A stretch of DNA of 48,523 bases from the IMG/VR virus record IMGVR_UViG_3300009175_000009, positions 1-48,523 of that record; one strand, given 5' to 3'. Both the position numbers and the translations under genes were made by a program. This stretch comes from a virus. Taxonomy: Duplodnaviria > Heunggongvirae > Uroviricota > Caudoviricetes. Within the stretch, counting starts at the first letter, position 1, and each line of letters starts with the position of its first letter. Positions 12,733-43,519 of the stretch are shown in pieces. The notes under the pieces were generated by a model. It had not been told where the DNA came from. It saw nothing but the letters and a program-made list of their open reading frames with translations, and did not search any database.

Positions 12733-12753
12733 ACATCATGCATCTTACGTGCC
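12733..12753 (-). promoter_or_regulatory. Sigma54-type motif overlapping an HEG stop codon, upstream of the ligase
   Basis: GGCACGTAAGATGCATGATGT. Confidence 0.7.
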
Positions 12754-13395
12754 AATATTTTGAATTCGACGGCGTATCAGAAGCGGCTTGCGGCCTGAAC
12801 TCATTTTGGGCATGGATAGGGCAATTTCGACTCCGTGTTTTTGAATACGTTCACGAAGCGTTCCCCAGGAAATTCCTATGCGTCGTGCCCATTCCGTTAG
12901 ACTGGCTGTTTGACCATTGTAAGTTAGCGGGGCTTTCCGAATTTCAGTGCGAAAGGCACGATGTGGGTCAACGTGCAGGCGGATATTCACAGCTTCCTTT
13001 GTAATGCCAAGACGACGTGCCCAGCCAGGAGCCGATAAGGTAATTCCGTCGTAAGTGTACATGGCCTTACGACGGTTGCCCTGCTGTTCCAGCCATGTGG
13101 CCCAGCGGCAGTTTTCTGGACAGTAGTTGCCGTCGTTATCGGGGTAGCGATCAATACTATGGCCGGGCGACGGGCGAGGCCCTATGTCGGCTAGGAAATT
13201 ATCGAATGACTCGATCCAACGATCACAGACGCGAATTCCTCGACCACCGTAGTTTGCGTATTCACGGCGGTTCGAGTTGTAGCATCTCTGTAGCATGCCA
13301 GTCCAAATACTGTATTCAGTTGGATACTGAGATCGTCGTGTAGATCGCCTGTATTTTCTTCGGACGTTTTCAACGCTAGAATGGCTTTTAGCCAT
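12745..13395 (-). CDS. HNH-like homing endonuclease with two C-terminal DNA-binding repeats
   Basis: WTGMLQRCYN...YGGRGIRVCDRW..SFDNF...SIDR..NDGNYCPENCRWAT; TYxG...WARRxGI occurs twice. Confidence 0.85.
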   Translation of the reverse strand: MAKSHSSVENVRRKYRRSTRRSQYPTEYSIWTGMLQRCYNSNRREYANYGGRGIRVCDRWIESFDNFLADIGPRPSPGHSIDRYPDNDGNYCPENCRWATWLEQQGNRRKAMYTYDGITLSAPGWARRLGITKEAVNIRLHVDPHRAFRTEIRKAPLTYNGQTASLTEWARRIGISWGTLRERIQKHGVEIALSMPKMSSGRKPLLIRRRIQNIGT

Positions 13396-13457
13396 GACAG
13401 CCTCTGTAATAGGTTGTAGTGGTGAACGGTCAAGGTATAGGCACCTTGACCGTTCTT

Positions 13458-13486
13458 ATTCTAGCACGACCCCGTCTAACTTTCAA
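13458..13486 (-). promoter_or_regulatory. Sigma70-like promoter of HEG 12745-13395
   Basis: TTGAAA-N17-TAGAAT, followed by a 13-bp hairpin at 13424-13455. Confidence 0.7.
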
Positions 13487-13490
13487 GTGC

Positions 13491-13883
13491 TCACAATTCC
13501 CAACTTGGTCGTTCGATATCGGGCGTCCATTTCTCGGCCAGCAGGCAGGGCAGGTCGCCTGCAACCCCGACCGCTACGGGGGCCGCTGAGCGGCTCACGC
13601 GGGCTACCGAGCGTCGTGCGGCTGAAACTGCGACCGGGGCTGCTACGGCGGCGGGTGCTACCTGTACGGCGACCTGCTGGCCCAGGCGGGCCAGTTCTGC
13701 GGCGACTCCGCGAAGGGCCTTGATATGCTTGCAGGTTCGCATATCGGGGTGCAGGTGTTGGTTCCGCCACGCGGGGCAAGAACAGCTATACACGCCGTGA
13801 ACGTTCTTGATCTGGTAGGGCTCGCGGGCCGAACCCTGAACATAGGCGACTTCGCCGTCTGCGAGGTTTCGGAAGGCTGGCAT
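13491..13883 (-). CDS. Truncated DNA ligase N-terminal (SWIM zinc finger) fragment
   Basis: YSCSCPAWRNQHLHPDMRTCKH and LLAEKW match the ligase at 11675-12697. Homology stops before the adenylation motif, then ERPSWEL*. Confidence 0.8.
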   Translation of the reverse strand: MPAFRNLADGEVAYVQGSAREPYQIKNVHGVYSCSCPAWRNQHLHPDMRTCKHIKALRGVAAELARLGQQVAVQVAPAAVAAPVAVSAARRSVARVSRSAAPVAVGVAGDLPCLLAEKWTPDIERPSWEL

Positions 13884-13948
13884 GGTACTTTCCTTCGGTT
13901 GGGTGGCCGGGCCGCGTGGGGCCGGCAGGGTGTATTTTTCTACCGACC

Positions 13949-13969
13949 ATATCATGCGAACGCCGTGCC
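13949..13969 (-). promoter_or_regulatory. Sigma54-type motif (leftward member of a divergent pair)
   Basis: GGCACGGCGTTCGCATGATAT. Confidence 0.78.
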
Positions 13970-14066
13970 AGGCCGCATTAAAACCAGACACGTAATATGG
14001 TGGGCCGGGCGGAGCGGAAACGGGCAAAACGGGCCGGATTTAGGCCAATACGAATTCTGATTCACT

Positions 14067-14087
14067 GGCACGCCGTTCGCATGATAT
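14067..14087 (+). promoter_or_regulatory. Sigma54-type motif (rightward member of a divergent pair)
   Basis: GGCACGCCGTTCGCATGATAT. Confidence 0.78.
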
Positions 14088-14156
14088 GCCCCGTAGAAAA
14101 CACGAACCCGCCGAGGCAGGCACCCCGCCCGCCGAGGCCCAACCAAGGAAAAAGCC

Positions 14157-14852
14157 ATGCCCGCTACGATTAGAAGCTTTCTGGACACGCAGTTACACGC
14201 CGGCTGCAACATCATCAGCCTTGCCTACATCAGCAAGAAGACAGCAGGCGACGGCCTTTTGCAAAAGAGCCGAGCGACCGGCCAGCCGACCTCCGAGGTT
14301 TATCTGATGGGGGTGCAGCGTGAGGCCCAAGGTCGGTTTTTCCTGGGGTTCGACTACGCCAAGAACGTCGACGCCCAGCGGGAACGCGAGGGCAAAGCCG
14401 GCGACCCCTACGTGGTCGAGGGCCTGTGGTGCGACAAGGACGGCAACGCCAAGGGCCGCCACTTTGCCGACTACCCCAGCTTGGTTTTCCACGTTGACCG
14501 GCCCGCCAGCGAGTACCTTTACACGCGACCGTACCAGGACAAACAGGGGAGGATTCAGAAAGAGTACAGCGTGTGGCGGGATATCGCTACCCAGCGGATC
14601 CTGACCGCCGAAGAGGTGGCCGACCTCAAGGCCAACTACCTGCCCAAGGTCAGCCCGAGCAAGAAGCAGGATTTGGCGAAGGAAATCCCGGTGCGGGTTT
14701 TCAAACTGGAAACCATGTTCGCCCTCAAGGTCAAGGGCAAGGGCGAGTGGGTTTACCTTACCGAAGACCGCCCGAGCCGAGCCGAGCGAGTTGTGGCCCG
14801 CCGCCGCATGCAAACCGCCAACGCCGAACTTCGGCCCACCTGGGAAATCTGA
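14157..14852 (+). CDS. Hypothetical protein (ends LRPTWEI)
   Basis: 231 aa, AAGGA RBS, first gene after the sigma54-like motif at 14067. Confidence 0.65.
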   Translation: MPATIRSFLDTQLHAGCNIISLAYISKKTAGDGLLQKSRATGQPTSEVYLMGVQREAQGRFFLGFDYAKNVDAQREREGKAGDPYVVEGLWCDKDGNAKGRHFADYPSLVFHVDRPASEYLYTRPYQDKQGRIQKEYSVWRDIATQRILTAEEVADLKANYLPKVSPSKKQDLAKEIPVRVFKLETMFALKVKGKGEWVYLTEDRPSRAERVVARRRMQTANAELRPTWEI

Positions 14853-14854
14853 GG

Positions 14855-14881
14855 TTGACCTCGGGCTAGACAAACTATAAT
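14855..14881 (+). promoter_or_regulatory. Sigma70-like promoter of the EndoVII HEG
   Basis: TTGACC-N15-TATAAT (short spacer). Confidence 0.55.
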
Positions 14882-14885
14882 ACTA

Positions 14886-14972
14886 GTGTTGTCAGCACAT
14901 ACCCCAAACACCCCCGTCCCGCAGAGGCTCTGCATCTTCTAGATGCTGTGCTGACAACACCTGCGGGGCGGG
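14886..14972 (+). ncRNA. Pseudoknot leader RNA, copy 1
   Basis: P1 GTGTTGTCAGCACA (14886-99) pairs with 14947-60; P2 CCCGTCCCGCAG (14913-24) pairs with CTGCGGGGCGGG (14961-72). Confidence 0.7.
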
Positions 14973-14989
14973 CTTTTAATTCAACGATC

Positions 14990-15664
14990 ATGCCGTACAA
15001 AAACCCTGCCGACAAAAAGGCGAATGACGCACGACGTGCGGCGGCTATCCTTGCTGACCCTGTTCAACGGGAGAGACGCAATGCACGGCATTGTAAGAAC
15101 TATGCCCGCCTCAAAAAGAACTCATCTTGGTGTAGGAAACGAGCCGAGGATTCGCACCGCCGCAACCAAACCAAATACTACGCTGATGTGGCGGCATCCC
15201 GCAAGCTCGTGCGGGAGCGGTTATCGCAAATGCGGGTGGCCAACACAGGCAATATCAACGGAAAAACCAAGGCGTATCGCCAACAGCACCGGAAGCAAAT
15301 CAACGCCAGTACCAAGGCATGGCTGGTGGCCCATCCTGAACGGGCCAAAGCGTACCGGCGGGCGGCACATCTTCAGGCAAAATATAAGATGACCCACAAA
15401 ACATACGAGGAGATGTTTAACGCTCAGGGTGGCGTATGTGCTGCGTGCGGTCAGCCTGAAACAAGTAAACGGCTAGGAGTGATTCGGCACATGCACGTCG
15501 ATCACGACCACGCCACCGGCAAGGTGCGAGCCCTATTGTGCCACAGATGTAATTCCGCCCTTGGACTTCTCAAGGACGACCGAACACTGGTGGCTAACCT
15601 GCTACTCTACATCAGCAAGTACCAACCCGTCACCCGCCGAAGAATTCAAACTGTTGGCACATGA
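14990..15664 (+). CDS. Endonuclease VII-family (His-Me finger) homing endonuclease
   Basis: QGGVCAACG...HVDHDHATGKVRALLCHRCNSALGLLKD; basic helical N-terminus. Confidence 0.85.
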   Translation: MPYKNPADKKANDARRAAAILADPVQRERRNARHCKNYARLKKNSSWCRKRAEDSHRRNQTKYYADVAASRKLVRERLSQMRVANTGNINGKTKAYRQQHRKQINASTKAWLVAHPERAKAYRRAAHLQAKYKMTHKTYEEMFNAQGGVCAACGQPETSKRLGVIRHMHVDHDHATGKVRALLCHRCNSALGLLKDDRTLVANLLLYISKYQPVTRRRIQTVGT

Positions 15665-15676
15665 CGTGCATGATAC
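15656..15676 (+). promoter_or_regulatory. Sigma54-type motif overlapping an HEG stop codon
   Basis: GGCACATGACGTGCATGATAC. Confidence 0.7.
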
Positions 15677-15698
15677 GACCAGCGAAAGGAACTGAATT

Positions 15699-15893
15699 AT
15701 GAGAATTAGAAGACCAGCAGTCGAATGCCCAAACTGGTGCCCGTACAAGACCTATACGTGGACGACCAAACAACTGGCCGCGTGGTATCTCAAGTATGGC
15801 GAATGGTGCCAGTACGATGGCCGTGTGTGGGTGCCCGTGACGAAACGTCTCGGTGGCGGAGTAGTGAGTGTCAGATTCAAGGAGAAGGTGTAG
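15699..15893 (+). CDS. Hypothetical protein
   Basis: 64 aa, GAAGGA RBS, downstream of a sigma54-like motif. Confidence 0.55.
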   Translation: MRIRRPAVECPNWCPYKTYTWTTKQLAAWYLKYGEWCQYDGRVWVPVTKRLGGGVVSVRFKEKV

Positions 15894-15896
15894 GCT

Positions 15897-16151
15897 ATGA
15901 ACGTCGGTGACATATTCTACAACACGCAGGACGAGCCATCACTGCCCGGCGTTCCGCCGTTCAAGAAGGGATTCTACAAGGTCATCAGCATCCGCGACAG
16001 CCTGCTCCTGCGACACCTGAAACCGCACCAGCGGCGGATGTACGAAATCCGCCGTTGCACCAAGAACGGTGGCAAACTGATGAAGTACCACAACGACTGG
16101 TGCTGTACGAAGCTCGACGCGTGGTTGGCGTCCGGTCGGCTACAGCAATAA
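15897..16151 (+). CDS. Hypothetical protein
   Basis: 84 aa, tightly packed. Confidence 0.55.
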   Translation: MNVGDIFYNTQDEPSLPGVPPFKKGFYKVISIRDSLLLRHLKPHQRRMYEIRRCTKNGGKLMKYHNDWCCTKLDAWLASGRLQQ

Positions 16152-16159
16152 ATACGAAC

Positions 16160-16180
16160 GGCACGCCGGTTGCATGATAA
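16160..16180 (+). promoter_or_regulatory. Sigma54-type motif
   Basis: GGCACGCCGGTTGCATGATAA. Confidence 0.78.
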
Positions 16181-16309
16181 GACCGGCATACGAAACAACA
16201 GCCGCTCAATAAGCGGAATGCGGGTGCAGGTCTCGTAGACCTGCACCCTGCGGATACAAGAGGCGACGGTCGGCGGGCGGTGAAGTCCTCACCGCCTGGG
16301 CCACCACGG

Positions 16310-16337
16310 TTGACGTAGCGAGTAGATCAGCTAGACT
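16310..16337 (+). promoter_or_regulatory. Sigma70-like promoter of the HNH-AP2 HEG
   Basis: TTGACG-N16-TAGACT. Confidence 0.6.
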
Positions 16338-16344
16338 AACGTTA

Positions 16345-16437
16345 GTCGGTTGACCTTGCACTTGGCCGACGAGCTTTGATTCATTTACGCCCAACCCGTC
16401 TCACGTCACTCGCAAGGTCAAACGTGGGGCGGGTTGG
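16345..16437 (+). ncRNA. Pseudoknot leader RNA, copy 2
   Basis: P1 TTGACCTTGC (16350-59) with GCAAGGTCAA (16412-21); P2 16391-406 with 16422-37. Confidence 0.75.
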
Positions 16438-16455
16438 TGTCGTTAGGATCATATC

Positions 16456-16977
16456 ATGCCGGAAAGACGCAGAATAACGAGCGTGCGGTTCATACCGCTG
16501 ACGCAGGGCCGGTTTGCTATCGTGGATGCAGCCGATTACGAATGGCTGACGCGATTCAGCAAGTGGTGCTACAACGGAACCAAAGGCTATGCCGTCAGCA
16601 GCCTAGTTCGCCGGTTGTCTCGGGCCGGCGAATCGTATCAGATGCACCAGATCATTATGCGGGCTCCTCCCGGCGTAAGCCCAGACCATAAGAATGGCAA
16701 CAAGCTCGATAACCGCCGCAGCAATCTGCGGCTGGCCAACGGTACGCAGAATATGGCCAACCGCGATCTACAGAGCAACAACACGACCGGCTACAAAGGT
16801 GTAGTTAGGCATCGTGGTAAATTCCGAGCCCGCATCGGCGATGGACTTCGCAAGGGTGGTCGGCATCTTGGCATATTCTTGACCGTTGAAGAAGCAGCTT
16901 TGGCCTACAACACGGCGGCTGTTGAAATGTACGGTGAGTTCGCTTGTTTGAATTCGGTTGGCACGCGATTCGCATGA
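16456..16977 (+). CDS. HNH-AP2 homing endonuclease
   Basis: IPLTQGRFAIVD...DHKNGNKLDNRRSNLRLA; C-terminal AP2-like YKGV...FRARI...HLGIF...EEAALAYN. Confidence 0.88.
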   Translation: MPERRRITSVRFIPLTQGRFAIVDAADYEWLTRFSKWCYNGTKGYAVSSLVRRLSRAGESYQMHQIIMRAPPGVSPDHKNGNKLDNRRSNLRLANGTQNMANRDLQSNNTTGYKGVVRHRGKFRARIGDGLRKGGRHLGIFLTVEEAALAYNTAAVEMYGEFACLNSVGTRFA

Positions 16978-16980
16978 TAC
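16960..16980 (+). promoter_or_regulatory. Sigma54-type motif overlapping an HEG stop codon
   Basis: GGCACGCGATTCGCATGATAC. Confidence 0.75.
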
Positions 16981-17103
16981 TTCCATCGTAAACGGTCAGC
17001 GTAAATCCTGCGGGCTCCCAAGCCTTCGGGCAGCAAAACAAGGTGGGCATACCCCACCGAATACGCTGACCGCCGCTCAAACCAGCAGCGAAGGAATGCT
17101 AGA

Positions 17104-17322
17104 ATGTCTGAACGAGAAAAAAACGCCTGGAACGAGATCGACGAACAAGCCGCCCGCGAGGGTTCGGCCCGCCGCCGCGAGTTTCACCACCACTTCACCG
17201 CCGCCGCGACGTCGCGGGGCATTGGTGTCCACAGTACTTCAATGGGCAAGAGCCGAGGCATGGCCAGCCGACCCGCTTCGGGCCGATTCGACCGCCTCGT
17301 CCAGCACACCCGAGCAGCCTGA
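17104..17322 (+). CDS. Hypothetical protein
   Basis: 72 aa, GAAGGA RBS. Confidence 0.45.
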   Translation: MSEREKNAWNEIDEQAAREGSARRREFHHHFTAAATSRGIGVHSTSMGKSRGMASRPASGRFDRLVQHTRAA

Positions 17323-17340
17323 ACCGAAAGGTAACCAACC

Positions 17341-17529
17341 ATGAAGAACCGACCCACAGTAATGACCGACAGCGGCGTATCCGTTGTTCTGGTTCCCTTG
17401 CCACACGGCCAGTTCGCGGTGAACCGCGTCTACAAGGGCAAGACCGACCGTATCGGCTACGTCGCCGTGCAGGGAAACAGCCCGTGCTGGCCCTGCGGCG
17501 AGACCTTGTGCCGCCCACGTCGCCGGTAG
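17341..17529 (+). CDS. Hypothetical protein
   Basis: 62 aa in the operon. Confidence 0.5.
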   Translation: MKNRPTVMTDSGVSVVLVPLPHGQFAVNRVYKGKTDRIGYVAVQGNSPCWPCGETLCRPRRR

Positions 17530-17629
17530 CCCGCCTCGCTGTCGAGGCAATGTCGCAGCGATTCAGCGAGCCACCTCCCCGCGAGTTGCACGGCCCCGAA
17601 AACGGCCCCGAAGATGATGGAGACGCACC

Positions 17630-17893
17630 GTGCTAACCGTCGAACTCAAACACGAACGAGCGAAGGGCCGAACCGCCGAGGTCGCCACCCTCCGCGAAGC
17701 ATCCGAGACCGTTCGCCTATACATCAGCTACTTTAGCCTTGGGAACGGCAACTGGCAGGGCGGGCTGGTACGCCAGAACGGCAAGCGGAAGTACATGATC
17801 TCTTACAATGGTCGTGTCTGGAAGTATGAGCCGAAAGGCTGGACGAACACGACGCCTGAAATCACTGGTGAAGAACTGGACAAACCATTATGA
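17630..17893 (+). CDS. Hypothetical protein
   Basis: 87 aa, GGAG RBS, GTG start. Confidence 0.55.
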   Translation: MLTVELKHERAKGRTAEVATLREASETVRLYISYFSLGNGNWQGGLVRQNGKRKYMISYNGRVWKYEPKGWTNTTPEITGEELDKPL

Positions 17894-18243
17894 CCACAGC
17901 GACGCAACCGACCCTCGACGCCCGCGGCTGGTTTGACTTCGTCAGCGAGATTCACGAGCAGGTGAAAAAGGCGGGCCGCATCTACACGACCGGCCAGATC
18001 GCTCGCCGCATCCGGGTCAAAGTCCTGAAGCAGTACCGCGATCAGGGCGACGACGAGATGACCGCCGAACGCGTGCGGCATGGCCTCGACCGTGTTGGCC
18101 CAGGCGGGCTTACCGGAATGATACTGCGATATGTAGAGGGCACCCTGGCCGTGCGAACGCGGGCGGGCGTGATCGATCAGCGGAACTACCACAACCGCGA
18201 CGCATTCCTTGCGGCCATCCGAAACCTGAATCCAAGGGCATAG
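17890..18243 (+). CDS. Hypothetical protein
   Basis: ATGA overlap with the upstream gene. Confidence 0.6.
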   Translation: MTTATQPTLDARGWFDFVSEIHEQVKKAGRIYTTGQIARRIRVKVLKQYRDQGDDEMTAERVRHGLDRVGPGGLTGMILRYVEGTLAVRTRAGVIDQRNYHNRDAFLAAIRNLNPRA

Positions 18244-18245
18244 TC

Positions 18246-18401
18246 ATGGACGAAGATATCGACGAACTCGATTACGAGTGCCCGCCGGTGTGCAGCGAGT
18301 GTGGCGAGAATCTTTGCGATTCGTGCGGCTGCTGCGGCAACCCGCACTGCGAAGCGTGCTGCTGCCCGCTTGTGGAACGCGAGGACGACGCGGGAGAATG
18401 A
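18246..18401 (+). CDS. Cys-rich metallothionein-like small protein (51 aa)
   Basis: MDEDIDELDYECPPVCSECGENLCDSCGCCGNPHCEACCCPLVEREDDAGE; 11 Cys; starts 2 nt after the upstream stop. Confidence 0.55.
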   Translation: MDEDIDELDYECPPVCSECGENLCDSCGCCGNPHCEACCCPLVEREDDAGE

Positions 18402-18449
18402 GCCATGAACGAATATGAAAAGTAATTCGCCTCGTTATCCCTAGCGGAG

Positions 18450-18803: not shown

Positions 18804-18804
18804 T

Positions 18805-19953: not shown

Positions 19954-19972
19954 ATGTTTGGAGGGCGTAAGT

Positions 19973-20416
19973 ATGCTATGCAGAGTATGCAACGAGCGAG
20001 AGGTTCCTGAAGGCCACAAACGGAACAGGAATTACATTTGTAGCCAGTGCCACTACGGACGATACAAGGAAAAGGCACAAATCCTAAATCGAAGGAACGG
20101 TAAACGTTACCGCAAGGAGTTGCGGGAACGTATGTTTGATGCTTACGGCAGGGAGTGTGTTTACTGCCACAGCACGACGAATTTGCAGTTCGATCATACT
20201 AACGGTGACGGTTGCCGCAAAACGCGGGGATATGATACGCGGCAGTGGTTTCTGATGCTTATTGCCGCAGGATTCCCGCCTAGCTGCCAAGTGGTGTGCG
20301 GGCAGTGTAACGTAGCAAAACAGAATATGACCGATGCTCAGTTCCGAGCCTGGATCAAGATGGTATATCACGCTATTCACGGCGTGGAACGGCGACGCAT
20401 ACGGAGTACTACATGA
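19973..20416 (+). CDS. HNH endonuclease inserted in the NDT-like gene
   Basis: CVYCH...LQFDHTNGDG...QVVCGQCNVAK; N-terminal CxxC...CxxC. Confidence 0.8.
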   Translation: MLCRVCNEREVPEGHKRNRNYICSQCHYGRYKEKAQILNRRNGKRYRKELRERMFDAYGRECVYCHSTTNLQFDHTNGDGCRKTRGYDTRQWFLMLIAAGFPPSCQVVCGQCNVAKQNMTDAQFRAWIKMVYHAIHGVERRRIRSTT

Positions 20417-22219: not shown

Positions 22220-22231
22220 TCGGAAGTACCT

Positions 22232-24924: not shown

Positions 24925-24945
24925 GGCACGCCATTCGCATGATAT
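24925..24945 (+). promoter_or_regulatory. Sigma54-type motif
   Basis: GGCACGCCATTCGCATGATAT. Confidence 0.75.
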
Positions 24946-25182
24946 GCCAGCCGATAGCACCCTGCCGGTAAGCCCGCAAAGAATCGTCGCGGGCCTTGGT
25001 GCAACCCACCGACCGCCGTTAAGCCAGCACCTAGCAGGACTCGTCGCTGGCCGGTCGGAAACCGCTGAACCCACGGCGGTAAGCCCTAGCGAGGCTTTGT
25101 GGGGTCTTTTCTTCGGACGGGTTAGGTGGGCGAGGGCTCGTAGCTCCTCGCCCACCAACCTCCTAAGCATAGCAGGTGAACC

Positions 25183-25952: not shown

Positions 25953-25973
25953 GGCACGGCATTCGCATGATAT
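25953..25973 (+). promoter_or_regulatory. Sigma54-type motif
   Basis: GGCACGGCATTCGCATGATAT. Confidence 0.75.
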
Positions 25974-26282
25974 GCTTACCGTTCCTGCGGCCCTTGCCTG
26001 AGTGAGGTGAAGGCCCGACAAGCGAGGTGCGAAGTACAAGCAATACCGGCTCCGTCCCCCGACGCCAAGATCGAGGGCACGAGGCCGCAGGAGCGAACGG
26101 TCCTTAGAACGCGGGGTAAAACCTGCGGGTCAGGTCTTACGGGAGTAAGACCGCAGCGGTTCGATTCCGCAGGGATCACCTCAGAAACCGAACTGGCTCG
26201 AAAATCATGGCTGGGCAACACTCGCGCGTGAGCCCACGGGTTCCTGCGGCCCCAAGAGCAGTTCGGTGGATTCACAGCGAAT

Positions 26283-26303
26283 GGCACAGCCTTCGCATGA
26301 TAG
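26283..26303 (+). promoter_or_regulatory. Sigma54-type motif
   Basis: GGCACAGCCTTCGCATGATAG. Confidence 0.72.
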
Positions 26304-26360
26304 GGTAGGCAGAAAGCAAACACGACCGAGTCGGGTGACGGCCCAAAGTGCGGCGTCCCG

Positions 26361-26388
26361 TTGACGCCGCAGGTAAACCGACTAGAAT
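26361..26388 (+). promoter_or_regulatory. Sigma70-like promoter of HEG 26507
   Basis: TTGACG-N16-TAGAAT. Confidence 0.65.
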
Positions 26389-26395
26389 AAGGGCA

Positions 26396-26486
26396 GTCGG
26401 TTGACCTCACAACTTGGCCGACAAACGAATCATGACTAACCAACCCGTCCTGCGTGACTTGTGAGGTCAAACGTGGGGCGGGTTGG
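26396..26486 (+). ncRNA. Pseudoknot leader RNA, copy 4
   Basis: P1 TTGACCTCACAA (26401-12) with TTGTGAGGTCAA (26459-70); P2 26440-55 with 26471-86. Confidence 0.75.
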
Positions 26487-26506
26487 CGTCATTTCGGAGT
26501 TATATT

Positions 26507-27004
26507 ATGTCGCGTAATCCAGTTGGTACGGCGTGGCGGGACATGAAGTACCGCTGTTTTAATTCAAGCCACCAAGCCTATTTTAACTATGGTGGTCGTG
26601 GAATTACGGTCTGCTTGGGTTTACAAGATTTTACTAAGTTCACCCAGGTTCTAGGCCCACGACCAGAAGGCTACACTCTTGACCGCGAAGATAACGAGGG
26701 TAGCTACACCTGTGGTGAATGCGACCAGTGCCGGGAGAATGAGTGGGTGAAGAACGTAAGGTGGGCTACGCGAAGTGATCAGCAGCTTAACCGAAGGACA
26801 ACGAATCATACCGTACTGTACAGGGGTGTAAGTCTCCATCTTGGAAAGTACTACTTAGCCCAAATTCGCTGTAACGGGTTACTACAATACGTGGGGTGTT
26901 TTCCTACGGCAAGGGAAGCCGCCATCGCGTACAACCAGGCGGCTACAGCCATTCGAGGGGCGAACGCTAAGATAAACCGAATTCGGATTCAGACCGGCAC
27001 GTGA
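26507..27004 (+). CDS. HNH-like/AP2 homing endonuclease
   Basis: AWRDMKYRC...YGGRGITVC...GPRPEGYTLDREDNEGSY...NVRWAT; AP2-like YRGV...AQIR...VGCFPTAREAAIAYN. Confidence 0.85.
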   Translation: MSRNPVGTAWRDMKYRCFNSSHQAYFNYGGRGITVCLGLQDFTKFTQVLGPRPEGYTLDREDNEGSYTCGECDQCRENEWVKNVRWATRSDQQLNRRTTNHTVLYRGVSLHLGKYYLAQIRCNGLLQYVGCFPTAREAAIAYNQAATAIRGANAKINRIRIQTGT

Positions 27005-27016
27005 TTCGCATGTTAA
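26996..27016 (+). promoter_or_regulatory. Sigma54-type motif overlapping an HEG stop codon
   Basis: GGCACGTGATTCGCATGTTAA. Confidence 0.7.
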
Positions 27017-27106
27017 TTCTTCTGAAATAGGTAGGCTAACCGATAGTAATAAACGCTTACGGTTCACCCGCCTCGGTTCTATAAACCACAAACCCCTGAA
27101 ACGACC

Positions 27107-27736: not shown

Positions 27737-27925
27737 ATGGATGACCTAACCAGAAAGCTGATCAGCAAGTGTTCGTACCAGCAAGACTTCGCGGCAGCCC
27801 TGAAATTTGCCGCCGACGTCTTGGCGATTCTGAACAAGCACGATGCCGATCAGCCGACCATCCTGATGTCATCCATCGAGTTGTACGAAACTGAAAAAGT
27901 AGTAAACGGCACGTCAAGTGCATGA
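27737..27925 (+). CDS. Hypothetical protein
   Basis: 62 aa; ends inside the sigma54-like motif at 27908. Confidence 0.5.
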   Translation: MDDLTRKLISKCSYQQDFAAALKFAADVLAILNKHDADQPTILMSSIELYETEKVVNGTSSA

Positions 27926-29344: not shown

Positions 29345-29418
29345 CGCGGAGTGGAGCAGTCCGGTAGCTCATGAGATTCATAATCTCAAGGTCGCAGGTT
29401 CAAATCCTGTCTCCGCCA
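29345..29418 (+). tRNA. tRNA-Met(CAT) with initiator-like body; CCA not encoded
   Basis: Complete cloverleaf: acceptor CGCGGAG/CTCCGCC (C1xC72 mismatch), D stem GAGC/GCTC, anticodon arm TGAGA-TTCATAA-TCTCA, T arm GCAGG-TTCAAAT-CCTGT. Confidence 0.92.
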
Positions 29419-29496: not shown

Positions 29497-29872
29497 GGGG
29501 GCGAATTGGATTCGACCGGGCAGCTAGAAGATTGAGTTGCGTGTCGTGGTTGGTCAGCAGGCCACGTTAATAGCCGACCAAAAACTTACTTGCCAAAAAC
29601 AAGTTCGAGAAGGCTCCGGCCTTCGCCCTCGTGGCCTAATAACCACGAGCCGACTGCGAACCCATCCGAGAGGTTCAAAAGCCGGCTGTAAACTCGGATC
29701 GTTCACGGTCGCTGCTGGTCACGCCGTGGATTAAAAATGCTACCGGCTGGTCGAACGACAACCCTGTTGATCCGGGGATCGCGAGACGACAGCTTGCAAA
29801 TAGGATCGACTACACACGTAGACGCTTGATCGGAAATGTCGCGGGACGCGGGTTCGATCCCCGCCGCCTCCA
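29497..29872 (+). ncRNA. ssrA: tmRNA; predicted tag (A)AKNKFEKAPAFALVA
   Basis: 5' GGGGGCGAATTGGATTCGAC; 3' GCGGGTTCGATCCCCGCCGCCTCCA; G3.U wobble in the acceptor stem; tag ORF 29592-29639 ends TAA TAA. Confidence 0.93.
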
Positions 29873-29945
29873 CTAGGCCGACTGCACGCCGGGACTACAT
29901 CTACCATGAACGAAGATGTCTCGGCAAACACCTCGTCGGCCTTTT

Positions 29946-34392: not shown

Positions 34393-35313
34393 ATGCTCAC
34401 ATCCGTGGCCCGCAGACCCATTGACGCTGTTCGTCACCGCCTGATTGTTCGGGTGCGTGAGCTGGACTTGGTTTATATTCCGAACATATCATTTAGCCGC
34501 GTCAAATCCCGACAGGAGGCACGCATCCTTGCGGATCGCCCGGTAGGACCGCCCGTGAAGGCCGTGAAACCCACACCGGGCCTGCCTCCGTACCTGCGGG
34601 CACTGTACGATACGCCCCTGCTGACGCGGGAACAGGAGGCTCACCTGTTCCGCAAGATGAACTACTTGAAATACAAGACGTCCCGCCTGCGAGATGATCT
34701 TGATTCGCACCGGCCATCCGTGCGGGCCATGCATGAGATTCTGCAATTAGCCGACCAGGCTATGGCCGTCCGCAACGAGATCATCACGGCCAACTTGCGA
34801 CTGGTGGTGAACATCGCCCGCCGGTATGCACACAGCAGCGATGAACTGTTCGACCTGATTAGCGACGGCAATATCTCCCTGATGCGGGCTGTGGACAGGT
34901 TCGATTACGACCGCGGCTTCAGGTTTTCAACCTATGCGACCTGGGCATTGATCAAGAACTATTCACGCAGCATCGCTGTGGAGATTCGGCAACTGGCACG
35001 TTTCCGCACGGGCGAGGAGAACCCGCTGGATAACGTGGAAAGCCCGTTAAGCGACCTTCCGCATCGTGTTGACGTGATGCAGGCCCGGCAGCATGGAATC
35101 GCCAAGATGCTTCAGCACCTTGACGAACGCGAGCATTTCATCATTGTCAGCCGATTCGGACTTGATCGCGACGCGATGACTCTTACGGACGTCGGCAAGG
35201 CCCTTGGCGTCGGCAAAGAACGCATTCGGCAGTTGGAGGCCCGAGCGATGGATAAGCTGATGCGGGCCGCCGTAACGGAACGCATCGATCCATTCAGTAT
35301 GATCCAAGTTTGA
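34393..35313 (+). CDS. Sigma70-family RNA polymerase sigma factor (regions 1.2, 2, 4)
   Basis: LLTREQE, ANLRLVVNIARRY, DLISDGNISLMRAVDRFDYDRGFRFSTYATW, TLTDVGKALGVGKERIRQLEARAMDKL. Confidence 0.93.
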   Translation: MLTSVARRPIDAVRHRLIVRVRELDLVYIPNISFSRVKSRQEARILADRPVGPPVKAVKPTPGLPPYLRALYDTPLLTREQEAHLFRKMNYLKYKTSRLRDDLDSHRPSVRAMHEILQLADQAMAVRNEIITANLRLVVNIARRYAHSSDELFDLISDGNISLMRAVDRFDYDRGFRFSTYATWALIKNYSRSIAVEIRQLARFRTGEENPLDNVESPLSDLPHRVDVMQARQHGIAKMLQHLDEREHFIIVSRFGLDRDAMTLTDVGKALGVGKERIRQLEARAMDKLMRAAVTERIDPFSMIQV

Positions 35314-37510: not shown

Positions 37511-37544
37511 TGTGTTCAGTGATGTAGAAAGAAGGTAATACAAC

Positions 37545-37757: not shown

Positions 37758-37763
37758 CGCCGT

Positions 37764-37991
37764 CTAACGTGCGACGAGTTCTAGCGGTTTGTTCATGTAT
37801 GCAGGCCGCGGGCGGGTTTCGATGTGGATGGAGTCCCACATTTCCTTACGCTGCACGTCTATGCAGTCGAAACCCAGCGTCACGGTTCCGTTGTTGATGG
37901 CCACCACGTGAACGCTGATCCGGCGGCTGATGCCATCGTTGCCGCCAATGATAACTGATTCGTTAGGCTTGCGGTTCATAACTCGCATCAT
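37764..37991 (-). CDS. csrA: CsrA/RsmA-like RNA-binding protein
   Basis: MNRKPNESVIIG...ISVHVVAINNGTVTLGF...VQRKEM parallels the CsrA pattern LxRKxxESIxIG...VRLGI...HRxE. Confidence 0.72.
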   Translation of the reverse strand: MMRVMNRKPNESVIIGGNDGISRRISVHVVAINNGTVTLGFDCIDVQRKEMWDSIHIETRPRPAYMNKPLELVAR

Positions 37992-38447
37992 GATACGCCT
38001 TCGGCTAGAGGAAACGAAAAAAGCCGACGTGACCGCTGGTAGTGGTCGCGTCGGCTTACTATCTAACTAATCCCACCATGATGATCTGGCGGTATTTTTT
38101 ATCCAGTCTTCCAACTATGGAAGTGTAGGTCAAGCACAGCCTCGGGGGCAAGTCCTCAAAGTAAAGAAGCCGGTCGGTGACCGTAATGATCACCGCCGGC
38201 GTCAGAAAGGATCGCTTGCCTCGCGTCAGTACCAAGATAGACTCGGCGACTTGGCTAGTCAAGGATGATTTTAGTTATCGGTGATGATGGTGTCTGGATG
38301 AAATGACCGATTTGCCAGAATACGGATTCCAAGGGCTTGACGGTAGCATAGAATTAACTAGAGTGTATTTAGATATGGGCCGACGTTCGGCCCGAACCCA
38401 TCGCCCCTGCTGATTTGCCGACAGGGACGACCAACCGAGGAGATGTC

Positions 38448-38846
38448 ATGGCAAAAGCAAAAGCATCGAAGAGCGAAGACACCGAGGGCGGAACTGCCAC
38501 GGCTGCTCCTGCACGGCGGCGGGCGCAGACAACTGAGGCGGCGAAGCCAGCCAAGGCCGAGAAGCCAAAGGCCGCAGCGGAGTCGAACGGTAAGGCCGAG
38601 AAGCCCATGTCGGGCACGGCAGCGGCGGTGAAGGTTCTCCGCCGGCGTAAGAACAAGGAGATGTCCGCGAACGATCTGTTGACTGCGTGCCAGGAGGCGG
38701 GCTGGAAGCCGGAAGGCAAGACGCCCAAGCAGACCCTGGTCGCCGCAATCCAAAACGAGATCAAGCGTAAGGGTGACAAGGCCCGTTTCGCCAAAGGCGG
38801 CGAGCCCGGCACCTGGAAGCTATCGGAAGTCGGATTGACCGGCTGA
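38448..38846 (+). CDS. HARE-HTH (HB1/ASXL/RpoE-delta-like) winged-helix protein with Ala/Lys-rich N-terminus
   Basis: MSGTAAAVKVL...GKTPKQTLVAAIQNEIKRKGDKARFAK...GTWKL. Confidence 0.75.
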   Translation: MAKAKASKSEDTEGGTATAAPARRRAQTTEAAKPAKAEKPKAAAESNGKAEKPMSGTAAAVKVLRRRKNKEMSANDLLTACQEAGWKPEGKTPKQTLVAAIQNEIKRKGDKARFAKGGEPGTWKLSEVGLTG

Positions 38847-38971
38847 TCGATACGCCAACGATTTAGGTTGGTGCAGGCTGGACAGAATCATCTTTCTGCC
38901 CAGCCTGTAGTTGTTTGTGCATGTGTCTAGTGACACGAGGTATTAGAACTTGCAACCACAGGAGAAGTACG

Positions 38972-39673
38972 ATGCCCTTCCGACGACCTAAACGAGAAAG
39001 CGGCTCGGATGTAGTCGCCCGCTGGCTGATCAACAACCCCGATGCGACTCACCGGATGGTTGAAGATCACTTTGAGGTTGATAACCCCGATGCCAATCCA
39101 CCCCGCATTTACCCCAACGGCAAGATGTTTCTGGTCGACGGTAAGATGATCAGAATCACCCTGGGCCATGTTCGCGGAGGACGCAGGAAGCTGATGTCCG
39201 ACCCGTACAAGACCGCAACCCACGTCGGAGCGTCTTCAGCCAAGGCTGTGGTAGCGTCTGACTCGCTGCGAGCCCAGTCATCGGAGAGGAAGGCGTTTGA
39301 TTCCAACGCGAAGTGCCGGGCTAACGCGGGCAAGGCTGGTGTGGGCGTGACCGAGGATACCCGCGCGCTCACGAACGGTACGCCGAAGCCGAGGCCAAAG
39401 CGCAAACGCCGCAAAGACGCCGGGTACGTCAAAGTCGAGGACAGTCCGCTGTTGTCGGCCAAGCCCCCGGTTGCTGCCCCGCCGCCTCGGCAGTTGACGG
39501 TGGCCCCCGACGCCCAGGCTAACGACCTGTCCGAGGTGTTCATCGCCAGCATGAAGGCCCAGATCGCGGCGAAGAATCCGCCTGTGGACGAGGGGGATGA
39601 GATACTGAACCAGGCCACCTTTGATGAACTCGTCGCCCGCCACCGCAGCCGGAATGCGACACGAGGCGTCTGA
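38972..39673 (+). CDS. Hypothetical protein
   Basis: AGGAG RBS. Confidence 0.6.
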   Translation: MPFRRPKRESGSDVVARWLINNPDATHRMVEDHFEVDNPDANPPRIYPNGKMFLVDGKMIRITLGHVRGGRRKLMSDPYKTATHVGASSAKAVVASDSLRAQSSERKAFDSNAKCRANAGKAGVGVTEDTRALTNGTPKPRPKRKRRKDAGYVKVEDSPLLSAKPPVAAPPPRQLTVAPDAQANDLSEVFIASMKAQIAAKNPPVDEGDEILNQATFDELVARHRSRNATRGV

Positions 39674-39674
39674 T

Positions 39675-39923
39675 ATGATCACGCCTATTATCAGCGGCCT
39701 GCCGGCAACGCCATGCGATGATCCGAACTGCTATGTCAAGGCCCTTGGCATGGGAGATGCATTCAGCGAATGGATTTGTCCGCACTGTGGGGCTCATTTG
39801 GGAAGCGGTAATATCTGTTTGAACCTGTGCGGACTGAGTTACCCCGCCGCCCGACGTTTCAACGACATCCTGGCTGAGGCTGTTGCCGCAGTTAATAGCC
39901 GTCGCCTGGAAAATCCAGGCTAA
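39675..39923 (+). CDS. Hypothetical zinc-ribbon protein
   Basis: CPHCG...CLNLC. Confidence 0.55.
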   Translation: MITPIISGLPATPCDDPNCYVKALGMGDAFSEWICPHCGAHLGSGNICLNLCGLSYPAARRFNDILAEAVAAVNSRRLENPG

Positions 39924-39965
39924 GGATGTATGATCGCGTGTCTGGTTGGGAAAGGAGGATTTCCC

Positions 39966-40373
39966 ATGAAGGCAAAACGCTTCGTCGCCCTGGTTCGGAT
40001 TTGGCGGTTTGTGCCGCCTTGTATCGATCAAGGGACAAACGAGATCGAACACGAAGGTACGATGGTCGTGAACCGGGCGACCACAGTCTGGCCGGTTTGG
40101 CGTGGCTGTACCCGCCAGCCGCTACGATCCCGCGAATACTTCTGGATCACCTATCGCGGGAAACGGTATCCTGTAGACAGGGCCGAGGACGGTGAGGGTG
40201 TGGCGTATGAGGTGCGATTGGCATCCGACGACAACCCATTGACGGCAACACAGCTTGACCGTAAGACGATCACCCGCGAGACGGCCCGCGAAACCGCACT
40301 GGCCCGTGAACTTCTACACCGCGGCCTGGTTGCCAAAGCCAAAACCGGGCGGCAGAAAGGAGGCCGCCGATGA
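39966..40373 (+). CDS. Hypothetical protein
   Basis: AGGAGG RBS. Confidence 0.55.
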   Translation: MKAKRFVALVRIWRFVPPCIDQGTNEIEHEGTMVVNRATTVWPVWRGCTRQPLRSREYFWITYRGKRYPVDRAEDGEGVAYEVRLASDDNPLTATQLDRKTITRETARETALARELLHRGLVAKAKTGRQKGGRR

Positions 40374-40981
40374 TGCACGTCACAGCACTATTCAAGACAC
40401 CAAAGGATACGACCTGGAGGCCGGTCAGCTACGGCACTGGAAGCAACCTGCGATGGGCGGCACATAGCTGCTTCGTTGCGACAGCAGGCACCGGCATTAC
40501 CTATGAAGAGGTGAAGATCGAGGGCAAGCCCAAGGGCGAGTATGATATGGAGGCCCACGTCACCCGCAAGAACCCTGACGGGAGCGTGGCCGCCGAATGG
40601 CGGATCGTACCATCGCCGGGTTCTCGCCCCGACCCCGATGCCCCCAAGTTCGTACCGCAGCCGCCCCGACCGTCTGTGGCCGATACGCGGGCCAATAGCA
40701 AGGCCCACAAGCCCGCCGTGGCCGCACAGGCGGCCCGCCGTGGCGTGGCAGTGGGTACGGTGGTAGAACGGGCCAAGACGCCCGAACCCGCCGAACTGCC
40801 CCCAATACCGTCGCACGCGTCGGCAGGTTTGGTTCGGCGACCTATCGCCCGCCGCCCCCTGACCCGCAAGTCCCTCGACAACGCCCCGCCAGCCCCGACC
40901 GTTCGCGGTCCATTGCCCCGCCGCAGGCTAACGGTCAGCGGGCAGGCCCAGGCTGGCAGGACTATCGTGGAATACGACTGA
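40370..40981 (+). CDS. Hypothetical protein with Pro/Arg-rich C-terminus
   Basis: AGGAGG RBS, ATGA overlap. Confidence 0.6.
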   Translation: MMHVTALFKTPKDTTWRPVSYGTGSNLRWAAHSCFVATAGTGITYEEVKIEGKPKGEYDMEAHVTRKNPDGSVAAEWRIVPSPGSRPDPDAPKFVPQPPRPSVADTRANSKAHKPAVAAQAARRGVAVGTVVERAKTPEPAELPPIPSHASAGLVRRPIARRPLTRKSLDNAPPAPTVRGPLPRRRLTVSGQAQAGRTIVEYD

Positions 40982-41008
40982 AATCCGCGAATTCAAATTT
41001 TGGCAATT

Positions 41009-41029
41009 GGCACGGCGGTTGCATGATAC
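41009..41029 (+). promoter_or_regulatory. Sigma54-type motif
   Basis: TTGGCACGGCGGTTGCATGATAC (full TGGCACG-N4-TTGC consensus). Confidence 0.8.
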
Positions 41030-41226
41030 TACCCACAGAGCCGCGAGGCTAAACAACCCGACAACCCAGATGTTTTCCTGCTCCTTCAAATGCGGTGCCG
41101 CGAGGCTGCCTACAATCGGGGATAGTATGGCCCCAACCGCACAACTCGGCGAGGGTTGCACTTCTGAAACGAAGTGGGGAGCAGAAAGACCTCTGGGTAA
41201 ACCCTGAAAGCAGAAGGAAGAATACC

Positions 41227-41556
41227 ATGCCCTGGCGCGAAGTGATCACCGACGAGGATACGCCTGAGTACGCCTTGTTCCTGGCCTTGGACAACCAAGC
41301 CTTTATGTTCCGCAGCGTCGATGCCCTTGTGGCGAAGACTTGCCGTCCCGCCGAGTGGATCCGCGAAGTGGTCGCGGCCCACCCCGATTTGGTTCGCCGT
41401 AGCAACGGCCAGCGTGAAACCTACGGGTTGGTCGAGCGAATCGGCAACCTGGAGCCCGCCCCCGTCTCGGCCCATTACGAGCAGCCGATGGTGAACGACA
41501 ACCTCGGCGAGGTCGAGGACGAGGTCACCCCGCCCGACGCAGACGGCGAACTGTAG
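41227..41556 (+). CDS. Hypothetical protein (ends DGEL)
   Basis: GAAGGA RBS after a long structured leader. Confidence 0.6.
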   Translation: MPWREVITDEDTPEYALFLALDNQAFMFRSVDALVAKTCRPAEWIREVVAAHPDLVRRSNGQRETYGLVERIGNLEPAPVSAHYEQPMVNDNLGEVEDEVTPPDADGEL

Positions 41557-41570
41557 AATTGAATGCGACT

Positions 41571-41591
41571 GGCACGGCGGTTGCATGATAC
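41571..41591 (+). promoter_or_regulatory. Sigma54-type motif upstream of the amidoligase
   Basis: CTGGCACGGCGGTTGCATGATAC. Confidence 0.8.
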
Positions 41592-41659
41592 TACGGTAGA
41601 AACCAAACCCGCCCGCCCGCGAGACCCAAACGCGGGCGGGCCTAACCGAGAGCAGAAAC

Positions 41660-42535
41660 ATGAACGCGAATGAGCTGACCTTTGGTGTTGAGATCGAGAC
41701 CCTTGCGGGCCAAGACGCCCGCAACGCTGGCCTGCGGGTCGGAGCTTACGGGTCGCCAGTTCAGGTTCCCTACCTGCCGCACGGATGGCGGTGCAAGGGG
41801 GACGGCAGCATTAGCTGCAACAACAGCAACCAGAACGCCTGCGAGGTGATCAGCCCGATTCTTCGCGGTGCGGCGGGGATGGCCCAAGTGGTCGCCGCCT
41901 GCCAAGCCCTGCGGGAAAAAGGTCATATCGTCAACACGACCTGCGGCGTCCACGTCCATATCGGATGGGACCAGAGCCGCAGCGAGGTGAACGCGGAAAG
42001 CCTGAAACGTCTCATCACGATAGTGGCATACCTTGAGAAGGGACTGTACGCGATCACGGGCACGAAGGCTCGCGAGCGAGGACGCTACAGCAAGCCGGTG
42101 CGGCAGTACCTGCGACCAACGCAGGTGCAGCGTCACGCTACCTCCGACCGCTACCACGCTTTGAACCTCGCCAACATTCGGCCCGGTGGCAAGCAGACGG
42201 TCGAGTTCCGAATCTTCAGCGGCAGCATTTCTGCCACGAAGATAGTCGGGTGGATTCAGGTTTGCCTGGGCATCGTCGAGCGAGCCCAAAACGGCAAGCG
42301 ATGCCCAGCTTGGTCGCCCAAGCCCCTGCAAGGTGGCTGGCGGAAGAAGGGCGAGGGCGCGGGTGAGTGCGAGCGTCTCCTCGGCTACCTTGCCTGGGCT
42401 GAAGCCTATGCACGGCGGCACGGCGGAAACAAGTACGGCTTGATCGCCCCCGACCTGATTCCTGCCGACACGATCATGGCCGAGTTTCGCCGCCTTGCCA
42501 AACGCTACGATAGCGAGGCCCGCGACGAGTTGTAA
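41660..42535 (+). CDS. Putative amidoligase (COOH-NH2 ligase, Amidoligase_2-like)
   Basis: TFGVEIE, DGSI, EVISPIL, TCGVHVHIG, RYHALNL, TVEFRIFSG. Confidence 0.85.
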   Translation: MNANELTFGVEIETLAGQDARNAGLRVGAYGSPVQVPYLPHGWRCKGDGSISCNNSNQNACEVISPILRGAAGMAQVVAACQALREKGHIVNTTCGVHVHIGWDQSRSEVNAESLKRLITIVAYLEKGLYAITGTKARERGRYSKPVRQYLRPTQVQRHATSDRYHALNLANIRPGGKQTVEFRIFSGSISATKIVGWIQVCLGIVERAQNGKRCPAWSPKPLQGGWRKKGEGAGECERLLGYLAWAEAYARRHGGNKYGLIAPDLIPADTIMAEFRRLAKRYDSEARDEL

Positions 42536-42541
42536 ACCAAA

Positions 42542-42562
42542 GGCACACCAGATGCATGGTAG
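42542..42562 (+). promoter_or_regulatory. Sigma54-type motif (divergent copy)
   Basis: GGCACACCAGATGCATGGTAG. Confidence 0.6.
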
Positions 42563-42632
42563 TGTCTAGAGAAGCCCGCCCGCACCCACGGGCCTTACCG
42601 AACCAAACCCATAGAGCAGAAGGACGAGTATC

Positions 42633-42839
42633 ATGTGTGAAGAACAGGAAATTCGCAGTTACGATGAGGGTCTGGAAGTTAGCGTGATGTCAGTCGAAGA
42701 CTATTCGGACGAAGTTTCGGACGAATATGCTGATCGACTGGTTGTCGTAATAACCAACGCGGACTGCGTGACGCATTCCGCCGATCTGCAAGACCTGATC
42801 GACTGGGTAAAGCAGAATCGCCCAGATATGCTGAAGTAA
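42633..42839 (+). CDS. Small acidic hypothetical protein
   Basis: 68 aa, follows the sigma54-like motif at 42542. Confidence 0.55.
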   Translation: MCEEQEIRSYDEGLEVSVMSVEDYSDEVSDEYADRLVVVITNADCVTHSADLQDLIDWVKQNRPDMLK

Positions 42840-42858
42840 GTGTGCCCGTGATGGCTAG

Positions 42859-42887
42859 TTGACTAATCGCGGACACCCGTCTAGAAT
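42859..42887 (+). promoter_or_regulatory. Sigma70-like promoter of HEG 42905
   Basis: TTGACT-N17-TAGAAT; AGGAGG RBS follows. Confidence 0.72.
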
Positions 42888-42904
42888 AGCTGTAGGAGGA
42901 CGTT

Positions 42905-43519
42905 ATGAAACGCCGAACGCAGCCAGACGAATGTATGACTGAGGGATGCCGCTGCAAAGCCCTGTCGCGGGGCCTGTGCCCGCCGTGTTACGCGAGAGTG
43001 AGCAGGCTGGTACAACTAGGCCAGACGACCTGGAACGTCGAGGTGTCCGCAGGGCGGGCTATACCGGCCCGCGACAACCACGGAGAAAGCGGGACAAGGC
43101 TGCACGATATTTGGGAAGGGATACGAGGCCGCTGCTACAACCGTAACAGTACCAGCTATCGGCACTACGGAGCCCAAGGGATACGGATGTGCCGATCATG
43201 GCACCGCTACCTGAACTTCAGGGATTGGGCACTGGCGAACGGCTACCGCGACGGGCTGGTATGCGACCGCAAGGACGGAAGGAAGAATTATACTCCCGGC
43301 AACTGCCGGTGGGTTACGCAGGCTGAGAATGTCCGCAACAATTTGAACGTGGAGTGGTTCACGGCCTGGGGCGAAACGAAAACGGTGGGTCAGTGGTTTC
43401 AGGACGCACGGTGCGTGTTGGATAATGAAAGTACGCTGCGAATGCGGATTGCTCACGGATGGGATGTGGAAAAATCGATTACAAAACCGGCCAGGGCTTA
43501 TGGCACGCGAAGTGCATGA
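42905..43519 (+). CDS. HNH-like homing endonuclease
   Basis: SRGLCPPCY finger; IWEGIRGRCYN...YGAQGIRMC...DRKDGRKNYTPGNCRWVT. Confidence 0.85.
   Translation: MKRRTQPDECMTEGCRCKALSRGLCPPCYARVSRLVQLGQTTWNVEVSAGRAIPARDNHGESGTRLHDIWEGIRGRCYNRNSTSYRHYGAQGIRMCRSWHRYLNFRDWALANGYRDGLVCDRKDGRKNYTPGNCRWVTQAENVRNNLNVEWFTAWGETKTVGQWFQDARCVLDNESTLRMRIAHGWDVEKSITKPARAYGTRSA

Follow-up and report, generated by a model that had tools for sequence, protein, structure and literature searches.

Five nuclease genes in a 48,523-nucleotide stretch of DNA (the window), which makes up the initial 48.5 kb of a virus record of 112.5 kb (IMGVR_UViG_3300009175_000009, Caudoviricetes), end inside copies of a repeated sigma54-type promoter motif, so that the motif supplies the last codons and the stop codon of each gene. 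Comparison with related phages showed that this putative promoter belongs to a mobile unit, that resident copies are often stranded upstream, and that the 5' ends of downstream genes are replaced. Nuclease and motif were seen to move together, as judged from the alignments of two cassettes. We consider it likely that these genes are promoter-replacing homing cassettes, which would cut near the 5' end of the downstream gene, as T4 mobE does. The slots are named below after the positions at which the nuclease genes end. Since the same proteins also occur on a 192.5-kb contig, the 112.5-kb record is partial.

The strict form of the motif, GGCAC-N7-GCATG, occurs 19 times in the record, always within 8.9-46 kb, as compared with a mean of 0.66 and a maximum of 4 copies in shuffled sequence (n=50). 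The column profile of 44 non-redundant copies, from the phage and its relatives, gave the consensus YGGCACR-N4-TYGCATGATA with an A/T-rich stretch 7-13 nt upstream. The copies are intergenic, share the orientation of the next gene, and mostly lie 43-150 nt before its start. With GG at -24, GC at -12, and TGGCAC and TTGC boxes, the profile agrees with the bacterial sigma54 (-24/-12) consensus TGGCAC-N5-7-TTGC, including the 10-nt distance between GG and GC (GG-N10-GC) (PMC12316311); unlike bacterial promoters, the phage motif adds a conserved TGATA extension after the -12 box. By consensus match and position, the motif is predicted to act as a sigma54-type promoter, and the phage appears to run a gene region from such promoters. 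A preliminary description of the window had called the motif an essential sigma54 promoter; both labels have this match and position as their sole basis. No match to PF00158 or PF04552 (activator and sigma54 gene) was found in the 112 of about 192 kb searched, and a host factor could possibly supply the sigma54 or the activator. The named relatives of the ligase and the amidoligase come from Planctomycetota, the likely host phylum, and a limited literature search found no description of a sigma54-type-promoter gene region for Planctomycetota phages.

The ends and terminal peptides of the five open reading frames (ORFs) were confirmed as first described, with every stop inside the motif. Three ORFs stop at +6 of GGCAC (12745 on the minus strand, IGT*; 15664, VGT*; 27004, TGT*), and two stop at +15, on the motif's own GCA-TGA (16977, VGTRFA*; 43519, YGTRSA*). 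Each of the five is in the GGC-ACN frame on entering the motif, and this is the sole frame in which the conserved GCA-TGA is a stop. By PHROG and Pfam, all five encode nucleases (HNH, HNH-AP2 or EndoVII), and the recognisable families in the window and its relatives (HNH, EndoVII, GIY-YIG) are those of homing endonucleases. When tandem genes lying immediately before a copy were compared, the stop fell in the motif for 5/6 nucleases and 1/10 other genes (Fisher p=0.0076; gene classes for the Fisher tests were assigned by hand). The specificity for nucleases thus held, and the one non-nuclease gene that ends in a copy is the 62-aa gene singled out in the preliminary description. The stops of ordinary upstream genes precede the motif by 9-31 nt, except in this gene and in two that read through.

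The same was found in the relatives, in which nucleases stopped within the motif in 5/7 cases and other genes in 0/8, giving pooled values of 10/13 and 1/18 (p=6e-5) for cases that are not fully independent. The relatives' motif-ending nucleases (L015 7441-8166 and 9185-9952, L023 5549-6070, L009 19546-20334, and L009 10929-11483 in a one-mismatch copy) sit at other positions or are other alleles; the two others are the L193 nuclease, which stops 11 nt short, and L009 16962, which reads through after frameshifts. Nucleases within operons or genes carry no motif; the nuclease-like ORF at 19973-20416, for one, is coupled to the next gene within an operon. Two HNH genes at 64 kb lie outside the motif region and do not end at a motif. 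Six HNH proteins were strongly divergent in alignment. Several candidates were rejected. The HNH-ligase ORF does stop 7 nt before the copy at 10746, as had been stated, but it was dropped as a supporting case, since its stop is that of the old ligase C-terminus, an ordinary host-gene end. An apparent read-through at L009 16962-17540 is caused by two frameshifts, and the intact frame ends in IQTGT*. ORFs 13952-14215 and 13725-14060 overlap divergent units and are probably spurious.

The presence of a nuclease is optional at fixed sites (41571, 42542-43519 and 26283-27004; the window, L008, L015, L023 and L193 compared). At the DUF6011 slot (27004), a single motif in L008, which is nuclease-free, is followed by a structured leader (z=-4.0) and then the DUF6011 gene. 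The window keeps the motif at 26283 and the first 58 nt of the leader, followed by a 684-bp cassette with a second motif at 26996, and then the rest of the leader. A homologous nuclease lies in L009 at a different locus, between other genes, and the homology runs from the -35 box through the end of the motif, spacer included. The split leader, of about 80 nt (window 26322-26360 and 27045-27075; L008 322-402), has no Rfam match; its two outer arms continue to match on either side of the cassette, and similar 5' halves occur in L201.

At the glutamine amidotransferase slot (43519), nuclease-free L023 has a single motif and leader ahead of the gene, whereas the nuclease in the window brings a motif, a leader and a gene start unlike the resident ones. 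In L015, a different nuclease allele comes with the motif and leader that are imported in the window, and the resident one is gone. Within the first 30 coding nt of the glutamine amidotransferase, the nuclease-plus alleles differ from each other at 2 positions and from the nuclease-free allele at 11.

At the ligase slot (12745), an older ligase has left its 5' fragment stranded upstream of the nuclease, with a motif of its own in front; the fragment matches the N-terminus of the intact ligase at 42% identity (E=2e-32). This places the entry of the cassette about 440 nt downstream of that resident copy. An 803-bp block (13516-12714), comprising the sigma70 promoter, the nuclease, the motif and 20 nt, is 100% identical to L201, with flanks of about 80-85% identity. 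Both the 5' and the 3' ends of the intact ligase would be cassette-borne replacements. The ligase appears invaded at both ends (10754-13883), with the 5' fragment upstream, the OB domain on an HNH downstream and the intact ligase between; its last ~255 nt are identical to L201, and the remainder shows 88% protein identity. Several unrelated ORFs, the stranded ligase fragment among them, end in a second C-terminal tag, RP[TSGE]WE[LI]* (window 13491, 14852 and 23707; genome 99730; L009 near 11780), and two of these ORFs directly precede a nuclease's sigma70 promoter.

In these three slots, the motif at the nuclease 3' end is thus best read as a second, cassette-borne copy and not as a fixed landing site. 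In the preliminary description, the nucleases would land just 5' of the resident promoter, which they would take over as their 3' end. The nucleases do use the motif as their 3' end, and specifically so, but the resident copy was left upstream at all three slots, and alignment with nuclease-free relatives or remnants placed the insertions 58, about 90 and about 440 nt downstream of it, in a leader, at the start of the glutamine amidotransferase and within a ligase gene, respectively. Its further point, that nothing downstream is disrupted, stands in so far as a predicted promoter is kept before the downstream gene: this promoter-like signal overlaps the last nuclease codons, 43-144 nt before the next gene.

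A common architecture of the unit was evident. Each motif-ending nuclease gene starts with a sigma70-type promoter right after the upstream stop, usually with a hairpin next; the strict pattern TTGAC-N17-TANNNT has 9 matches genome-wide, 5/9 of them in front of window nucleases. As defined by these predicted elements, the cassette unit consists of a sigma70-type promoter, a hairpin leader, the nuclease, the sigma54-type motif and sometimes a new leader and first codons. The 16977 nuclease probably follows the stranded-motif pattern of 27004, as an orphan motif lies 150 nt upstream of its promoter and is the probable resident promoter of that slot. The EndoVII gene (15664) has a relative in L009 that ends in a one-mismatch motif. 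Long non-coding, hairpin-rich stretches follow several motifs (16180-16309, 16980-17100, 24945-25180 and 25973-26280), and one of their hairpins recurs in L009 near 17660; they match no Rfam family. An Rfam search of the nuclease loci gave no intron match and named none of the leaders.

The amidoligase slot (41571) differs from the others and is the one slot that looks like the insertion picture of the preliminary description. The window is nuclease-free here, and in three relatives an HNH gene fills the space from the upstream stop to the motif, so that no promoter is stranded; the motif, leader and first codons that follow these genes are unlike those of the window. The alleles of this HNH family also bear on the origin of the stop-codon fusion. 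The 278-aa allele has its own stop 11 nt before the motif, while the 241- and 173-aa alleles end inside it, the latter having lost its C-terminal domain and ending in HSDGT*. The 43519 protein is likewise without a tail that is present in its L015 relative, yet both proteins end in GTRSA*. These alleles point to deletions that would stop at the motif edge as the source of the fusion. Most copies carry the TGA at +15, whereas a spacer stop at +6 occurs in 6/12 nuclease-borne copies and 0/33 others, with about three independent origins, and the three nuclease-borne copies that lack the +15 TGA all have it. This distribution indicates that the motif has adapted to the role of stop codon. Several nuclease tails also carry the peptide RRRIQT. 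RR[IM]Q[TN] lies within 20 residues of the N- or C-terminus in 10/11 called genes that contain it (0.8 expected), with synonymous codons varying (window 12771, 14802, 15638 and 20393; genome 67708-106262; L009, L015, L023 and L031). Since RRRIQT ends unrelated proteins far from motifs with varied codons, it was ruled out as a promoter by-product and is regarded as a protein-level tag that lies over the motif's A/T-rich upstream edge.

We therefore prefer the following scenario for the homing cassettes, whose steps are modelled in part on T4 MobE. A nuclease gene would come to lie just upstream of a motif, its dispensable tail would be trimmed by deletions to the motif edge, and the in-frame TGA, or a new spacer stop, would turn into its stop codon. 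In a nuclease-free phage, the enzyme would most likely cut the leader or the conserved 5' codons of the downstream gene, and repair would copy the cassette in, often stranding the old promoter and gene start upstream. The imported motif would keep the downstream gene expressed and might guard the nuclease 3' end against deletion.

Several points weigh against this scenario or qualify it. It rests on sequence, so that cleavage sites and transcript starts are predictions and the direction of change is inferred. The relatives amount to four or five genotypes on short metagenome contigs, some possibly chimeric; there is no nuclease-free allele among them for 12745 or 15664, and the sole one found for 16977 is non-syntenic. 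An in-motif stop is partly automatic, as any ORF that reaches the motif in the GGC-ACN frame is stopped by its TGA. The non-nuclease gene at 14140-14840 is almost 100% identical to L009 10080-10780, in phages otherwise 70-80% alike; this is a recent gene-sized exchange, and since such identical blocks exist without a nuclease, homing need not have produced the 803-bp block. Finally, a motif directly follows 6/7 window nucleases, as compared with about 10/55 other genes (p~8e-4), a bias also expected if the motif itself were the target.

One alternative is that the motif serves as a recombination linker, like the PeSL elements of T4-like phages (PMC2839356), so that promoter-led units are shuffled, nuclease tails are merely the most erodible, and cutting plays no role. 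Ordinary genes, too, often lie in homology blocks that start at a motif (14064, 41006 and 43501), and a single motif-plus-leader module stands ahead of a different gene in each of three phages; such shuffling would account for some breakpoints and for the identical block that lacks a nuclease. The 9-31 nt that separate ordinary gene ends from the motif do not fit this explanation, nor do cassettes that start at their own sigma70 promoter and hence are not bounded by two repeats, and the stranded gene starts and replaced first codons are scars of the homing type. We regard the linker as an unlikely explanation of the whole pattern.

Somewhat less probable still is the proposal of the preliminary description that the promoter is a homing landmark, in which unrelated nuclease families would recognise sigma54-type boxes, with or without site-specific flanks, and thereby target a class of promoters and not one gene, inserting just before the boxes, the promoter tip making the insertion harmless. 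Apart from the positional bias given above, the amidoligase slot fits this proposal, and if the 803-bp block reflects homing into a nuclease-free allele, the cut would lie within a ~70-nt window centred on the motif. The insertion points, however, vary among the three slots, and in the carriers about 20 copies remain intact, among them the one at the end of each nuclease itself. At least three families (EndoVII, HNH-AP2 and phrog_3377-type enzymes) would all need one convergent target, and among EndoVII relatives in unrelated viruses, 0/70 have such a motif at or near the gene end. Coincidence in a motif-dense region, to which the +15 TGA of most copies and the few non-nuclease genes that end in or read through a copy could be ascribed, is highly improbable, given the pooled excess, its recurrence in relatives with different nucleases, and the restriction of spacer stops to nuclease-borne copies.

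The principle of an embedded promoter is known. In T4, promoters are embedded in the nuclease genes segG (before gene 32), mobE (before nrdB), segA, segE, mobB and mobC; the downstream gene's promoter within the 3' part of the nuclease is thought to favour nuclease retention, and the gene that follows mobE is nicked by MobE in its 5' part (PMC2988022, PMC2790892). As in segG and mobE, a promoter-like sequence for the downstream gene lies within the nuclease 3' coding region here. Unlike in T4, it is of sigma54 type, provides the final codons together with the stop, read in one frame throughout, for at least three nuclease families, and moves with the nuclease to other loci while the resident copy is stranded; each nuclease also has its own sigma70-type promoter, which mobE does not. 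The PeSL cassettes of RB49, phi1 and other T4-like phages, in which repeats shuffle modules (PMC2839356), are similar in that a repeated promoter element punctuates a variable region. Homology breakpoints fall at the PeSL repeat, and several homology blocks in the present region start at a motif. PeSLs, in contrast, consist of a sigma70 promoter and a terminator with modules flanking on both sides (PMC2839356), whereas the present cassette has a sigma70-type -35 box as its 5' edge and a sigma54-type motif overlapping coding sequence as its 3' edge.

Fungal mitochondrial mobile ORFs are endonuclease cassettes with a substitute gene terminus. As in these, the insertion is neutralised here by an imported gene end and the old end is stranded (both ends of the ligase, the start of the glutamine amidotransferase), but the import is mainly a stereotyped promoter common to many unrelated loci and not the terminus of one gene. 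A literature search of incomplete coverage found no account of nuclease genes that end in, or move with, a sigma54-type motif. The new elements are the stereotyped stop-codon fusion, the two-promoter cassette and the movement between loci. By ending in the phage's common promoter signal, which doubles as its stop, a selfish nuclease gene would become portable across the genome and bring its own repair for the regulatory damage that its insertion causes, adding promoter copies and leaving old ones behind. The T4 retention idea rests on few fixed sites; here, about a dozen cases, for which alleles with and without the nuclease exist, open the target sites and the promoter hand-over to direct test.

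Table 1. Predicted features of the window that bear on the nuclease cassettes.
Feature	Position	Strand	Basis or remark
HNH fused to old ligase OB domain	10754..11395	-	Ends 7 nt before motif 10746, no motif fusion
Intact ATP-dependent DNA ligase	11675..12697	-	Pfam match
Cassette-borne motif ahead of intact ligase	12734..12753	-	Lies in 803-bp block shared with L201 at 100% identity
Free-standing HNH-type nuclease, 216 aa, ends IGT* at +6	12745..13395	-	phrog_3377 E=6e-54
Sigma70-type promoter of 12745 nuclease, then hairpin leader	13458..13486	-	
Stranded 5' fragment of older ligase, up to LLAEKW	13491..13883	-	Insertion inside coding sequence
Resident motif ahead of stranded ligase fragment	13950..13969	-	Strict motif match
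Sigma70-like promoter of EndoVII gene, spacer shorter than others	14855..14881	+	Read from sequence
EndoVII nuclease, ends VGT* at +6	14990..15664	+	PF02945 E=5e-21
Motif at EndoVII 3' end	15656..15675	+	Strict motif match
Orphan motif, no ORF before next nuclease promoter	16160..16179	+	Candidate resident motif
Sigma70-type promoter of 16977 nuclease	16310..16337	+	Pattern match
HNH-AP2 nuclease, ends VGTRFA* on motif TGA	16456..16977	+	PF13392, phrog_99
Motif at HNH-AP2 3' end	16960..16979	+	Strict motif match
Nuclease-like ORF, counter-example, not motif-ended	19973..20416	+	Weak HNH/EndoVII matches, phrog_4234 E=4e-7
Resident motif of DUF6011 slot	26283..26302	+	Directly leads DUF6011 gene in nuclease-free L008
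Complete cassette of DUF6011 slot	26361..27044	+	Comparison with L008 and L009
Its sigma70-type promoter, followed by hairpin leader	26361..26388	+	
Its nuclease	26507..27004	+	
Its motif	26996..27015	+	
62-aa non-nuclease gene ending in motif 27908	27737..27925	+	Relative has nuclease in that slot
Nuclease-free motif before amidoligase	41571..41590	+	Three relatives carry HNH in slot
Resident motif and leader of 43519 slot	42542..42561	+	Lead glutamine amidotransferase in nuclease-free L023; 68-aa gene here
Sigma70-type promoter of 43519 nuclease	42859..42887	+	Pattern match
HNH-type nuclease, ends YGTRSA* on motif TGA	42905..43519	+	phrog_3377 E=1e-38
Cassette-borne motif, leader, first ~9 glutamine amidotransferase codons	43502..43597	+	Replacement 5' end

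The related-phage contigs, which are 70-90% identical and include L008, L009, L015, L023, L193 and L201, were obtained from protein-cluster look-ups. Single-protein scans of viral contigs with the ligase or DUF6011 gene gave no relatives, pattern scans for the motif in other viral contigs gave only unrelated loci, amidoligase-based scans gave only distant loci without a motif cluster, and a search with the HNH of the amidoligase slot gave no matches. A look-up of RNA records for 8500-18400 listed none, which speaks neither for nor against expression. On L003, an unrelated viral contig of low GC content, four sigma54-type motifs form a divergent cluster (289-495).

Other observations concern neighbouring genes. 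In the relatives, a GIY-YIG nuclease splits the OMP decarboxylase gene (L023 10393-11085), and the DnaB and SNF2 helicases of L029 and L030 carry inteins, from which the window alleles are free. The phage encodes a sigma70-family factor and two small genes (window 34393-35313 and 37764-37991; genome 48604-48801), and the syntenic counterparts of these two small genes in L015 belong to the CsrA family. The window also contains a tRNA gene with a CAT anticodon (29345-29418) and a full tmRNA gene (29497-29875).

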